This document shows positions 6,763-10,781 of a DNA stretch of 10,781 bases, piece after piece (within the stretch, counting starts at the first letter, position 1; the number at the start of each line of letters is the position of its first letter). A program made the position numbers and the translations under genes. A model generated the notes under the pieces. That model was given only the letters and a program-made list of their open reading frames with translations. It did no database searches and was not told where the DNA came from. The DNA is taken from IMG/VR virus record IMGVR_UViG_2778261567_000015, positions 1 to 10,781 of that record; one strand, given 5' to 3'. This stretch comes from a virus. Its lineage: Duplodnaviria; Heunggongvirae; Uroviricota; Caudoviricetes.

Positions 6763-6983
6763 GTACCCCTCCGCATTTTTTTTCGTTAGAAATAAGCGTT
6801 CTTCTTTCCTGTTCATCGCTCAGGAATACGCAGACCTCACCGCTAAGGCGTTTAAGTAAGCCGATGATTGCCCCTGATTCGCTGTCGGTCATCATGCCAG
6901 GGTAATCCTCTGCCAGTGCGCAAATAACTTCGATTTGGTGGGCGCGTTCTGCTGCCTGTTGTAGCGTGATTTCCTGGCTCATA
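6752..6983 (-). CDS. hypothetical small acidic protein (76 aa)
   Basis: Start at ATG 6981-6983 overlapping the stop of the Icd-like gene (ATGA); ends at the TAA at 6752-6754. Confidence 0.5.
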
Positions 6984-7146
6984 AGCCTACCCCCTGACGA
7001 ATACGGGCGACAAAAATAAGATGTGCGTGCGGCAGCTGGGCGCGGGCTTCGCGTTCTGTTGCTGCCGTGACGGTAAAGAGTGAGGTTTGTTTTTCCTGGC
7101 ACTGCATAAAGCGCCAGACAAAGTAAGGGCGTGCGGATACAGCCAT
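6979..7146 (-). CDS. Icd-like small protein, paralog 2 (55 aa)
   Basis: ATG at 7144-7146 with AGGAGCC SD. Paralogous to 7433..7630 (FVWRF...TEREAR...FVARIRQG). Family name 'host cell division inhibitor Icd-like' is from memory. The track ORF extending to 7482 is treated as a non-functional extension. Confidence 0.5.
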   Translation of the reverse strand: MAVSARPYFVWRFMQCQEKQTSLFTVTAATEREARAQLPHAHLIFVARIRQGVGL

Positions 7147-7149
7147 GTG

Positions 7150-7432
7150 AAAGGCTCCTGTAGTGAAATTAAGGAGTCTCGCTACTACGCTGCTAAACGG
7201 GGTGGCGAGACGTAACAGGGTTAGCAGACTGGCACTACAGGAACCAGCGAGCGCAAAGGCTCCCCCGTTACGCCCCGCCATAATGCGGGTATGGGTAGGT
7301 TTACGGACACAAAAAAACCGCATATCGGAATGTAAGCGGCTGTCCGCTGTAGTATTCAGGCTGCTAAACCCGGTCGCCATGTGGGCGATGGGTGAAGCAT
7401 ACAGCCCCGTGATAATTTTTTGCAAGCGGTTT
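7150..7432 (-). other. structured spacer between the Icd-like paralogs; candidate riboregulatory leader
   Basis: Open in both strands with no convincing protein. Contains two direct GCTGCTAAAC copies (7189-7198, 7360-7369) and the complementary GGGTTAGCAGAC (7218-7229); inverted CCTGTAGTG/CACTACAGG (7158-7166 / 7233-7241) overlapping the SD of the 7146 gene; weak hairpin plus 7-nt U-run on the minus strand at 7311-7339. Confidence 0.3.
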
Positions 7433-7630
7433 TTACGCATGATGTGACCCCTGACGAATACGGGCGGCAAATACAGCAACACAACCGGACGGGCAACGGT
7501 TACGCGCTTCGCGTTCCGTCCAGGCGGTTACGTGGATTATTTGAGATTCTCCGGCACTCAGTGCCAGAAAACGCCACACAAAGGCCGTTTGTGTGTGTAC
7601 AAGGTGTGGTATATGATTTACAGCAACCAT
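7433..7630 (-). CDS. Icd-like small protein, paralog 1 (65 aa)
   Basis: ATG at 7628-7630 with AGGAGCC SD; motif FVWRFLAL...TAWTEREARNR...FAARIRQG. First gene downstream of the minus-strand promoter at 7732-7761. Confidence 0.55.
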   Translation of the reverse strand: MVAVNHIPHLVHTQTAFVWRFLALSAGESQIIHVTAWTEREARNRCPSGCVAVFAARIRQGSHHA

Positions 7631-7700
7631 AACGGCTCCTAGTTTACGTTGTTGGTTAGAAGCCCCGTATGTGTTCCAGCACTGCGGGGTTTCGTCTTTT
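7585..7700. repeat. copy 1 of a ~115-bp duplicated unit (5' leader plus first codons of the Icd-like gene)
   Basis: Shares with 8330-8447 the blocks CGTTTGTGTGTGTA, CCATAA, TGGTTAGAAGCCC and a GC hairpin followed by a T-run (7663-7700), in the same order and spacing. Confidence 0.6.
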
Positions 7701-7719
7701 CTGTACCTTGCATCAACAA

Positions 7720-7802
7720 GGTGTAAGACACAATGTAAAATAACGGTGTCTTACACGTCAACCCTTCAAAATATTTTTTTTTCGTGTATATTGTCTTACA
7801 CC
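7720..7802. promoter_or_regulatory. divergent promoter pair with inverted-repeat operator
   Basis: Inverted repeat GGTGTAAGACAC (7720-7731) / GGTGTCTTACAC (7745-7756) and a third half-site TGTCTTACACC (7792-7802). Minus-strand promoter TTGACG (complement of 7756-7761) and TACATT (complement of 7732-7737). Plus-strand promoter TTCAAA (7765-7770), 16 bp, TATATT (7787-7792). Confidence 0.45.
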
Positions 7803-7822
7803 AAAAACATGAGGGGTTAAAC

Positions 7823-8002
7823 ATGGCAACGGGTCCAAAGAATGCAAAATCACAATCTGTAACTGCACGTATTGCCCATGAAATTATTGAAGGCATGGAG
7901 AACGTGAAAGAAGAAGGTGAAAGCACGGGGCAGTTTATAAACGCAGCCATGCGCGGCGAAATCAAACGCCGCCAGCGTCGCAAGGCCAAAGAATCAGAAT
8001 AA
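7823..8002 (+). CDS. ribbon-helix-helix (CopG/Arc/MetJ-type) DNA-binding protein (59 aa)
   Basis: ATG at 7823 with GAGGGG SD. Predicted beta-strand QSVTARI followed by two helices (AHEIIEGMENVKEEG, STGQFINAAMRGEI) and a basic tail. The track's GTG start at 7784 lies inside the promoter and is not favoured. Confidence 0.55.
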   Translation: MATGPKNAKSQSVTARIAHEIIEGMENVKEEGESTGQFINAAMRGEIKRRQRRKAKESE

Positions 8003-8059
8003 TCACTATCAGCGCCGTGGTGTGAGGTACTACGGCGCATTGCTTTACAGGGCAGTACC

Positions 8060-8287
8060 ATGACCAACAACACACTATCACCAATACAAGACACGCAAAC
8101 GCAAGATGATGAAATCATCCGGCAAAGGCAGTCAGAAGCCTGCGCCAGACTTGAGGAAGAACTAACCAGAACAAAAATACCACCACCAGCGCCGCGCTTA
8201 GTGCCACCAGAAAAATTTGCCCTTGAAGATTTTGTCGATAAATACCCACGGCGGCTTAAATCCGGCAAAAACCGACCGCCAGGATGA
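8060..8287 (+). CDS. hypothetical protein (75 aa), acidic N-terminus, Pro-rich centre, basic C-terminus
   Basis: ORF downstream of the RHH gene on the same strand. Weak SD (AGGG 12 nt upstream). Followed by hairpin GAAACGGA-TTAT-TCCGTTTC (8308-8327). No family recognised. Confidence 0.4.
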   Translation: MTNNTLSPIQDTQTQDDEIIRQRQSEACARLEEELTRTKIPPPAPRLVPPEKFALEDFVDKYPRRLKSGKNRPPG

Positions 8288-8329
8288 GTGCACAAAACCG
8301 AACTCTGAAACGGATTATTCCGTTTCCGG

Positions 8330-8447
8330 GGCGTTTGTGTGTGTATAAAGAGTAAGCTATGCTCTTTTATAGCCATAATCTTTACCTCAATTAATGGTTT
8401 GGTTAGAAGCCCGTTGGTGTTCATAGCGCCAGCGGGCTTTGCTTTTT
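8330..8447. repeat. copy 2 of the duplicated leader unit, carrying a remnant Icd-like start
   Basis: Same block order as 7585-7700. Minus-strand ATG at 8374-8376 with SD GAGGTA encodes MAIKEHSLLFIHTQT (compare MVAVNHIPHLVHTQTA) and then loses the Icd-like sequence. GC hairpin 8409-8437 plus T-run 8438-8447. Confidence 0.55.
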
Positions 8448-8506
8448 GTGTTGATTGTGTGTAATGTGTCACTACACATAAATACATTACATGAGGTGTA
8501 ATTAAC

Positions 8507-8686
8507 GTGTCAACACACAAAAACGAAAGGCGTGGTAATCCTCCGTTCCAGTTCCGTTTAGATCCTGACTTACGGGAAAAGATGGAAAAGGCACAACAAC
8601 ATGACGGCGATGATTCTCTTGCTGCCTGGATAAAGCGAATAATCCGCAAAGAATTACAGCAACGCGGCATAGAACCCAAAGGGTAA
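8507..8686 (+). CDS. Arc/Mnt-type ribbon-helix-helix repressor (59 aa, GTG start)
   Basis: GTG at 8507 with GAGGTG SD 8 nt upstream; stop TAA at 8684-8686. PPFQFRLDPDLREKMEKAQQ...SLAAWIKRIIRKEL resembles P22 Arc (PQFNLRWPREVLDLVRKVAEE) and Mnt (PHFNFRMPMEVREKLKFRAE). Absent from the ORF track because it is under 60 aa. Confidence 0.55.
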   Translation: MSTHKNERRGNPPFQFRLDPDLREKMEKAQQHDGDDSLAAWIKRIIRKELQQRGIEPKG

Positions 8687-9539: not shown

Positions 9540-10781
9540 CTAAACGGCTCGGATACCCCTTTTACCACTGGCGAGGGTTACGCCCGTCGCCGCAGCCTCG
9601 ACAAATTCGCCCCACCAGCGCATAAGCACCACGCGTTTTTCTATGTAGTTGCTCCGGTTGTATGCCCGTCTCACTTCGTTAGTGTCGACGTGGGCAAGTG
9701 CGGCCTCGATTACGTCCGGCTCGAATCCTTCCTCGTTCGCTGCTGTACTGAATATGGCGCGTAATCCATGAGACACCAGCACGCCAGCGAACCCCATGCG
9801 TCGTAATGCTGCGTTTGCTGTCTGGCTGTTCATTGGCTGCCGTGGGTCTTTCAGACTCGGGAAAACATAATCGCGGTGGTGGCTGATTGGTTTCATGGCC
9901 TCCAGCACCGCCATAGCCTGACCGGAAAGTGGGATAACGTGATCCCTGCGCATCTTCATGCGTCCGGCGGGTATCGTCCAGCGTTGCGCGTCCAGGTCGA
10001 TTTCATCCTACCGCGTTGATGACGCTTCGGCGGGACGGGTTACGGTCAGTAACTGCCATTCAATCAGTAATCTGGTCTGCCGTTCTGTTGCCGATACTGA
10101 TAAAGCCTGCATAAGCTCCGGCAACTGTTCGGGGCGGATTGTTGGCATATGTTTTTTTACAGGGGAGGGGAACGCCTTACGCACATTCATAGCCGGATTG
10201 GCATCAATCAGCCCACTGTTGGCGGCGTAATCCATTACCTCATTAACGCGCTGTAAAACCCGTTTGAGTGTTTCCAGGTTGCCGCGCTCCTTGATGGGGG
10301 TAAGCACCTCAACGAACCTGCGAGCGGTCAGGGTGTCTATTGGGGTGTTGCCGATGAACGGGAATACATATTTATCCAGCGATCGCCAGATGTCTTTAAT
10401 CGTGTTGGGGGCCAGATTCTGGCTGATTTTCACCTGGTACCATGCCGCCGCCACATTTTCGAACGTGTTCCCTTGTCTTCGGGCCTCTGCCTCTCGTTTT
10501 TTCTTCTCATGGCCCTGCGGGTCAGTTCCGGCACTGATTAACGCTCTGTACTCGCTACGGCGTTTTCTGGCATCAGCCAGGGAAACATCATCAAGCGATC
10601 CAAAACTCAGCAATATTCTTTTTTTGTCCGATGGCCGGTAGTAGGAAAATCGCCAGAGTTTTGATCCGGACGGTTTGACCAGGAGAAAAAGCCCTCCGCC
10701 GTCCTGTAGGGTGTATTCCTTTTCCGCTGGTCTGGCTGCTTTGATCTGCACCGTGGTTAATGGGGGTGTTTTTCTCGCCAT
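9540..10781 (-). pseudogene. int: P4-type tyrosine integrase interrupted by a single in-frame TAG
   Basis: N-terminal ORF 10011-10781 (GGGLFLLVKPSGSKLWRFSYY...) and C-terminal ORF 9540-9959 (HGLRAIF, RRAYNRSNY) are in the same frame, separated only by TAG (complement of 10008-10010). Read-through gives ...SSTR*DEIDLDAQRWTIPAGRMK..., where related integrases usually have Trp, consistent with TGG to TAG. Start codon is at the window edge. Confidence 0.75.

Follow-up and report, generated by a model that had tools for sequence, protein, structure and literature searches.

On the minus strand of the window, by which we mean the whole analysed stretch of 10,781 nucleotides, two small Icd-like genes flank the segment 7150-7440. 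The upstream gene, Icd-like-1 (65 aa; 7630..7433), matches the NCBIfam model NF033153 (phage_ICD_like) at 64.8 bits, and PGAP names its homologue Icd-like; it lies upstream of the RNA module described below. The downstream gene, Kil/Icd-like-2 (55 aa; 7146..6979), matches the same model at 56.2 bits and occupies the position of icd in P1 and of kil in P4. The original prediction that Icd-like paralogs flank the spacer held up (both match NF033153 and they are 45% identical), although the downstream gene begins with an ATG at 7146..7144 and not at 7147. No Pfam model matched the Icd-like ORFs, whereas the NCBIfam model did. A longer, eta-like ORF of 153 aa (7440..6979, minus strand) spans the elements designated below as a1/b1, t1, C4 and a2/b2 and ends as Kil/Icd-like; its ATG overlaps the stop codon of Icd-like-1 (ATGCGTAA, 7440..7433), and the Icd-like domain of NCBIfam covers just residues 107-149 of the product.

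At gathering thresholds, the sole Rfam match in the whole window was a C4/CI antisense RNA gene at 7285..7198 on the minus strand (RF01695; 72.2 bits against a gathering score of 45; E = 6.6e-13; model positions 1-87 of 87). P4's own CI scores 74.9 bits with this model. By alignment to the annotated 77-nt P1 c4, the mature RNA is predicted to extend over approximately 7279..7201 (79 nt). The C4 fold, a long closing stem around two hairpins, has compensatory support in an alignment of 79 sequences, with helices 1-3 paired in 93-100% and compensatory pairs at alignment columns 150/206, 157/170, 158/169 and 173/190. Two parts of this fold have counterparts elsewhere in the segment: b′, the 11-nt loop of hairpin 2 (UUCCUGUAGUG; 7243..7233, minus strand), which is the predicted main specificity determinant of the RNA, and a′ (P4 seqB), the unpaired CUGCUAA that connects hairpin 2 to the closing stem (7227..7221, minus strand). 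RNAs of the c4/CI type are stable molecules of about 77 nt that act in trans and are processed from a leader, which in P1 and P4 is the work of RNase P; this kind of antisense control has been textbook knowledge since the 1990s. As judged from its sequence, 7150-7440 is a segment encoding a C4/CI-type antisense immunity RNA together with two sets of target sites.

The original prediction was built on a triad of short complementary motifs, and its positions were exact: GCTGCTAAAC occurs twice (7189-7198 and 7360-7369), and a repeat search recovered the complement GGGTTAGCAGAC at 7218-7229. Taken alone, the 10-mer repeat is unremarkable (0.74 matches expected at ≤1 mismatch; two or more in 29 of 200 shuffles), and the motif owes its significance to the covariance-model match and to covariation rather than to the repeat itself. 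This triad is the “a” site of P1, equivalent to seqA/seqB/seqC of P4. The upstream copy, a1 (P4 seqA; 7371..7359, minus strand), carries the core UUAGCAG (7367..7361) in the loop of a 4-bp hairpin. The downstream copy, a2 (P4 seqC; UUAGCAG; 7196..7190, minus strand), falls in the loop of a hairpin that may form at 7211..7176, in competition with the 3′ strand of the C4 closing stem; at this putative a2-presenting hairpin, the P1-type rows of the covariation alignment are gapped.

A second, more variable triad constitutes the “b” site, in which b′ is complementary to both b1 and b2. The upstream b1 (ACUACAG; 7353..7347, minus strand) is complementary to the C4 hairpin-2 loop, and the downstream b2 (CACUACAGG, 7165..7157; feature 7165..7155, minus strand) overlaps the Shine-Dalgarno sequence AGGAG (7159..7155) of the Kil/Icd-like gene, 8 nt ahead of its ATG (7146). 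An inverted repeat covering this Shine-Dalgarno sequence had been reported as 9 bp long; the repeat is real, and we found it to be longer, as it joins 7153-7165 to 7233-7245 (13 nt, 92% complementary). Since its distal arm is the C4 hairpin-2 loop, the repeat represents a second site of antisense pairing rather than a local hairpin, with the RNA loop that is the partner of b2 lying 67 nt away. The original prediction had missed that the repeat over the Shine-Dalgarno sequence is this second site, and the one expected to be the main determinant of specificity. The a and b columns of our alignment coincide with the a1, b1, a2 and b2 misc_binding features and the c4 misc_RNA feature of the P1 record NC_005856.

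An earlier alignment comprised the window, related E. coli islands, P1, P7, D6 and P4. Covariation was then assessed in 79 distinct modules from satellites, P1, P7, D6 and viral contigs, gathered from IMG/VR with a 22-nt pattern for the 5′ part of C4. These modules carry 2 a-alleles (CUGCUAA and CUGUCAA) and about 18 b-alleles in many combinations, and the three copies of a and of b agree with one another in every module (79/79); the proposal that one segment could pair with either of two partners is thereby supported for a′ with a1 and a2, which covary across the set. When the C4 helices were considered together with a′-a2 and b′-b2, 98.8% of cells were standard pairs, and sliding the partners by 1-3 columns lowered pairing to 33-48%. 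The same structure contained 426 double-change cells versus 134 in shuffles, a comparison made on related sequences, for which shuffle statistics overstate independence; the conclusion is still robust because of the slid controls and the reassorting alleles. The b′-b2 helix showed compensatory changes at 7 of 9 pairs (97.7% paired). For the upstream sites, a1-a′ and b1-b′ were paired in 98.6% of cells (covariation of 0.653 versus 0.18; 24-37% paired in slid controls), and b1-b′ had compensatory changes at 6 of 7 pairs (97.3% of cells paired). In a cross-matrix of RNA-target duplexes, cognate pairs were the most stable, with upstream-site duplexes at −20 to −23 kcal/mol for cognate and −6 to −17 kcal/mol for non-cognate combinations. 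The combination of a and b is predicted to set immunity specificity.

Ahead of the target sites, a promoter-like element, TTGCAA-N18-TATGCT (7425..7396, minus strand), lies inside the long ORF at the position of P1 P51b (P1c4) and P4 PLE. It aligns with the annotated −35 and −10 of P1 and with TTGCCT-N18-TATAGT of P4, and matches the consensus at 8 of 12 positions, which is under the threshold of our consensus scan. By analogy with P1 and P4, this element is a putative promoter, probably a constitutive one. A candidate upstream regulated promoter, TTGACG-18-TACATT (7761..7732, minus strand), came from the consensus scan and sits among GTGTAAGACAC/GTGTCTTACAC operator-like repeats; the scan returned 3 sites versus 1.9 expected, so this candidate is not significant. 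We propose it as an analogue of P4 PLL that would drive the Icd-like-1/eta-like transcript.

The leader begins with hairpin 1 (AUCGCC-CACAU-GGCGA; 7389..7374, minus strand), which is the first hairpin of the c4-a1b1 and isrK models and has compensatory changes at 3 of 5 pairs. Between a1/b1 and C4, the weak minus-strand hairpin with U7 that had been noticed from the letters is present as a t1-like intrinsic terminator (AGCCGC...GCGGUU plus U7; 7341..7311), and all 79 modules share its four core G-C pairs unchanged. The core stem pairs CCGC (7339..7336) with GCGG (7321..7318) and is extendable to 7341/7316 around a 14-nt loop, with the U7 at 7317..7311. With four G-C pairs plus an A-U and a G-U the hairpin is weak, and a consensus terminator scan misses it, the stem being too weak and the loop too large. 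A conserved helix, CGGAC/GUCCG, with one compensatory pair encloses it. An intrinsic terminator between seqA and the RNA gene is the arrangement of P4.

Within 7100-7760, an interval for which the original prediction had suggested a search for C4-type families, the Rfam models returned C4 at 72.2 bits and, at relaxed thresholds only, two further matches that both contain the upstream motif copy and score under gathering. These were c4-a1b1 (RF03163; 36.2 bits against a gathering score of 46.7; E = 4.6e-7; 7402..7353) and isrK (29.6 bits against a gathering score of 50; E = 4.6e-4; 7389..7311, full model length). The isrK-matching region resembles the RF01394 family and is not a member of it by the Rfam criterion, and homology of the window to P1 a1/b1 is clear from the alignment. 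By analogy, a short RNA of the IsrK/SeqA kind (approximately 7390..7311) would end at the t1-like terminator. In work from 2000 attributed to Briani, P4 t1 reportedly lies between PLE and cI, and termination there is said to need CI and seqA and to autoregulate CI; from this parallel we infer CI-type autoregulatory termination at the t1-like hairpin of the window. A 9-nt complement to the 3′ half of t1, AAAAACCGC (7434..7426), was considered as an anti-terminator for upstream transcripts and rejected, as it is not conserved in L038 or L036-type modules and is hence treated as chance.

The long frame that crosses all of these elements is itself conserved. Upstream of the kil-like ATG it is open for 98-127 codons in 32/32 satellite-type modules, which include variants with cancelling +1/−1 indels, whereas in most P1-type modules the frame through the RNA closes after 11-14 codons. 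P4 has a collinear frame, the old ‘cI’ ORF (the 137-aa “cI protein” of the original record), and, as in P4, the kil-like gene is nested as the 3′ end of an eta-like ORF spanning the RNA. We infer translation of the 153-aa ORF from this conservation of the frame. In P4, Kil forms the 3′ portion of Eta; translation of Eta starts solely on transcripts from an upstream late promoter and prevents termination, while the same DNA encodes the CI RNA (PMC10111431). It had been argued that translation of the frame 7147-7440 would speak against an RNA; that argument is invalid, given that the homologous eta frame of P4 is translated over the CI RNA (PMC10111431). With the satellite frame open in all 32 modules and parallel to P4 eta/kil, translation would instead fit the RNA model.

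Megablast of 6900-7800 against the phage collection gave no match, and a word-11 blastn search matched P1, P7, D6 and numerous P1-like plasmids, the a1-b1-c4 region being 76-81% identical, with c4 annotated in some of the matched records. A search of genome contigs for related loci with the 153-aa ORF gave no confirmed locus, a strict C4 DNA pattern matched just 2 genome loci, and a looser C4 loop pattern in viral contigs recovered mainly unrelated chance matches and a few P4-like RNAs. Segments related to the window occur in more than 1,100 of 5,426 complete E. coli genomes. The closest E. coli relative, an island of strain DEC9B that is 93% identical and adjoins tRNA-Pro, carries an integrase, HTH/AlpA-type regulators, two Icd-like genes, DUF4222, a RepA-like helicase and SSB, as well as genes for PerC, the major capsid protein, head decoration and the small terminase, and the ORFs of the window agree with this set. 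The gene content is that of a PICI/P4-like satellite (integrase, AlpA-type, replication and packaging/capsid genes in a compact element next to a tRNA gene), and because the DEC9B relative has capsid, head decoration and small terminase genes, the island is a capsid-encoding PICI-type satellite. A second region, 8300-8500, had also been suggested for this search, and was rejected as a second RNA gene: Rfam at E ≤ 10 gave nothing credible there (only an R1162-like match, E = 3.3), and what lies there is a remnant duplicate of the 5′ UTR and start of Icd-like-1.

What had been offered as an analogy to P4 CI RNA and P1 c4 turned out to be homology, as argued by the RF01695 match, the same order of elements as in P4 and the 76-81% identity to P1/P7/D6. 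The c4 systems of P1, P7 and D6 (immI; RF01695; targets a1/b1 and a2/b2; icd-ant downstream) have the same RNA fold as the window and are 76-81% identical to it in nucleotide sequence from a1 to the end of c4. They share with it the two-site (a, b) recognition, the element order and the placement of b2 over the Icd-like Shine-Dalgarno sequence, and the a allele of the window (CUGCUAA/UUAGCAG) is the P7 allele. The b allele (CCUGUAGUG), however, was not found in the P1-type set, and the carrier is a chromosomal satellite island rather than a P1-like plasmid prophage. In contrast to the P1 type, the window has no ant antirepressor downstream, where small ORFs, DUF4222 and a RepA-like helicase stand instead; its frame through the RNA is open, and it has an extra upstream Icd-like gene.

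P4 (PLE - seqA - t1 - cI/seqB - seqC - kil in eta) gave the same three Rfam matches in the same order as the window, with isrK at 60.8 bits in the seqA region and c4-a1b1 at 44.1 bits, which is also under threshold; a complementary site, a Shine-Dalgarno sequence and the 65-codon kil gene follow. Window and P4 have in common the terminator between seqA and the RNA, a small Kil/Icd-like gene whose Shine-Dalgarno sequence is covered by a site complementary to the loop, a long ORF spanning the RNA, and a satellite setting that includes an integrase of the P4 type as well as an AlpA-like gene. P4 is too divergent for blastn, and its a′ (UUCUCAC) and b′ (CCUGUGAA) differ from those of the window. 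Its t1 hairpin is strong where that of the window is weak, it has 110 extra nt between t1 and cI, and its Kil falls short of the NF033153 threshold, which Kil/Icd-like-2 passes. The gene coupled to the eta-like ORF is the upstream Icd-like gene in the window and an alpA/vis homologue in P4, and the downstream replication genes are of RepA-helicase type in the window as opposed to the alpha primase of P4.

A third comparison is IsrK of Salmonella Gifsy-1 (RF01394), in which a hairpin, a hairpin with a1 in its loop and a U-run terminator precede a C4-like RNA, as they do in the window; the orf45-anrP-type downstream genes of that system are absent from the window, and the isrK score of 29.6 bits is below the gathering score of 50. 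IsrK has been described as a structural homologue of the SeqA RNA, and P4 CI as pairing with seqA and seqC (PMC4825925). In a study from 2023, the Rfam C4 and isrK models detected CI/seqA relatives in several Gram-negative (GN-PICIs) and helper-embedded PICIs (HE-PICIs), where they were read as immunity functions, and the window belongs to the island type of C4/isrK-positive PICIs portrayed there, with capsid, small terminase, AlpA and primase/helicase zones (PMC10111431). The passages of that paper on C4/isrK PICIs do not describe two-site allele combinations or the upstream Icd-like gene.

We conclude, with a probability of about 0.9, that 7150-7440 is the minus-strand immunity cassette of a PICI/P4-like satellite, homologous to immI (c4) of P1/P7 and to cI of P4. 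On the minus strand, the observed order is a1-b1, t1, C4, a2-b2, Shine-Dalgarno sequence and kil-like gene. In the mechanism that we propose, an internal, probably constitutive promoter (7425..7396) would transcribe all of these elements in turn, and the leader would be processed, as for P1 c4 and P4 CI, to a stable species of about 79 nt (7279..7201). Its two exposed segments, b′ in the hairpin-2 loop and the single-stranded a′, which are complementary to b2 and a2 and covary with them, would pair with these sites; such pairing would mask the Shine-Dalgarno sequence, over which b2 lies, and so prevent the Kil/Icd-like gene from being translated. By analogy, Kil/Icd-like-2 should be the first gene whose translation the RNA blocks. 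If P1 and P4 are a guide, the untranslated transcript would then end prematurely and the downstream replication genes would be kept off, leaving silent an operon of small ORFs, DUF4222, the RepA-like helicase, SSB and others. The same b′ and a′ would also pair with b1 and a1 and raise termination at the weak t1, as at P4 t1, and this termination would place the RNA under its own control and yield a short transcript of the IsrK/SeqA kind. Icd-like-1 and the coupled 153-aa eta-like ORF would be carried on transcripts from the upstream regulated promoter, and ribosomes crossing the cassette may make these transcripts insensitive to immunity, as the conserved ORF and the example of P4 eta suggest.

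The strongest competitor, which we regard as unlikely yet worth serious weight, is a purely P1-style translational repressor acting by a Shine-Dalgarno block and Rho polarity, with no t1-like role for the upstream sites or for the hairpin and U7. The module is indeed far closer to P1/P7/D6 (76-81%) than to P4, which blastn misses, and the t1 hairpin is a weak one that the terminator scan does not pick up. Against this, a1/b1 covary with a′/b′ as tightly as the downstream sites do and so are under selection to pair, the hairpin and U-run are kept in 79/79 modules at the position of P4 t1 and of the IsrK terminator, and the satellite context with an eta-like ORF is like that of P4. A cis-only attenuator, in which a1/b1 or a2/b2 would pair alternatively with b′/a′ and no diffusible stable RNA would be made, is highly improbable. 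Folding of alternative structures, an analysis suggested along with the original prediction, did give a minimum free energy structure of the 253-nt leader in which a1/b1 pair with b′/a′ intramolecularly (−94.8 kcal/mol; z = −3.5), but P1 c4 and P4 CI are trans-acting immunity factors (record annotation; PMC4825925), and the conservation and covariation of the C4 fold, with its long closing stem, suggest that a stable RNA is excised. The idea that the segment does no more than encode the N-terminal part of a 153-aa Icd-like protein, its motifs having no role as RNA, has a very low probability: the frame 7440..6979 is open here as in all 32 satellite modules and PGAP calls homologous 153-155-aa ORFs ‘Icd-like protein’, but the Icd-like domain is confined to residues 107-149, the C4 covariance model recognises the same DNA at 72 bits, substitutions keep pairing at three separated sites rather than the peptide sequence, P1-type modules retain the RNA and its targets though their frame is closed, and the 137-aa ‘cI protein’ ORF of P4 has long since been re-read as an RNA gene (PMC4825925).

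The observation that started this analysis is real and its interpretation correct, and the system is an ordinary one that is already known: Rfam recognises this copy of C4 above threshold, and the established picture of C4/CI control is unchanged. Its value lies chiefly in annotation, as the NCBI pipeline calls the whole 153-aa frame “Icd-like protein”. The C4 RNA is unannotated in the E. coli records that we inspected, so the regulatory core of these islands stays hidden. Once recognised, the a and b alleles make the immunity type readable from sequence, indicating which elements should be mutually immune, and the module would explain how satellite replication genes stay silent. Three features may be undocumented, namely the a × b reassortment common to P1-like plasmids and satellites, the coupled upstream Icd-like gene and the tandem cassettes seen in L038. 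The second of these could be a distinct design for immunity bypass, in which the upstream Icd-like gene is coupled to the eta-like ORF, and tandem cassettes such as those of L038 could give dual immunity.

Both a-alleles (CUGCUAA and CUGUCAA) recur in satellite and P1-like lineages with many b-alleles, and since the a-site is shared with the P7 type, partial cross-pairing might occur between them. That the immunity RNAs of satellites and P1-like plasmid prophages form one interacting network is a long shot; if it were true, a satellite might detect a P1/P7-like prophage resident in the same cell or damp its activity, or the prophage might do so to the satellite. The integrase of the window copy has an in-frame stop, so this particular island may be decaying, and the RNA module itself is intact.

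The a site of the C4 antisense RNA gene and its targets (single-stranded a′ with upstream a1 and downstream a2) was compared across A1, our alignment of 79 distinct modules from satellites, P1, P7, D6 and viral contigs, and only two alleles were found in the a-site columns (193-199, 48-54 and 224-230), CUGCUAA and CUGUCAA. Both were common to P1-type phage-plasmids and satellite islands, and they combined freely with about 18 alleles of the b site (the hairpin-2 loop b′ and its targets b1 and b2), none of which was common to those two groups among the 79 modules. P4-type RNAs differ, carrying the a alleles UUCUCAC, UUCCUAC and UUUCCAC.

Two complete a1/b1-t1-C4-a2/b2 cassettes (t1, a t1-like terminator) lie in tandem in E. 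coli 2012C-4502 (L038; NZ_CP027440; 1041-1318 and 1501-1778), each with a short Icd-like ORF ahead of it. These cassettes differ in specificity (a = CUGCUAA with b = CCCAAUUUG versus a = CUGUCAA with b = CCUGUAGUG) and could provide dual immunity.

The window itself contains two "switch" modules in tandem, since the ~700 bases (7705-8398) it holds in excess of the 93%-identical island of E. coli DEC9B bring another small RHH-like gene (7823..8002, plus strand), an ORF (8060..8287) and, counted with them, a minus-strand remnant of the 5′ UTR and start of Icd-like-1, the 65-aa ORF upstream of the RNA module. This remnant (8280-8470) is a second copy of 7540-7720 (minus strand; 75% identity) that spans the 5′ UTR and first ~15 codons, with no similarity beyond. 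Both copies of the 5′ UTR share a hairpin and an invariant GGGCUUCUAACCAA, and each resembles an intrinsic terminator when read on the plus strand; the one at 8406-8440 was called by the terminator scan. Operator-like repeats (GGTGTAAGACAC / GGTGTCTTACAC / TTGTCTTACACC; 7705-7790) separate the Icd-like-1 operon from the divergent gene at 7823..8002, and another set, TGTAATGT...ACATTACA (8455-8495), precedes the plus-strand gene 8507..8686.

In the C4 closing stem, the 3′ strand (GUCUCGC) has an alternative downstream partner, GCGAGAC, and the resulting hairpin (7176-7211, minus strand) would carry a2 in its loop. This choice of pairing, with equivalents in P4 (GCUAUCGCC/GGCGAUAGC) and P1 (CCUG/CAGG), suggests a precursor with alternative folds.

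None of the six E. coli RefSeq records (L001, L003, L036-L039) has an annotated C4 RNA feature; PGAP labels the long frame over the RNA as a 153-175-aa "host cell division inhibitor Icd-like protein" or, in L039, as frameshifted.

The P4-type integrase of the window island (10781..9540, minus strand) is collinear in a single frame with the 413-aa DEC9B integrase (94.7% identity). It is interrupted by an in-frame stop (ORF 10781..10008, restart at 9959), and therefore this island copy may have lost the ability to excise.
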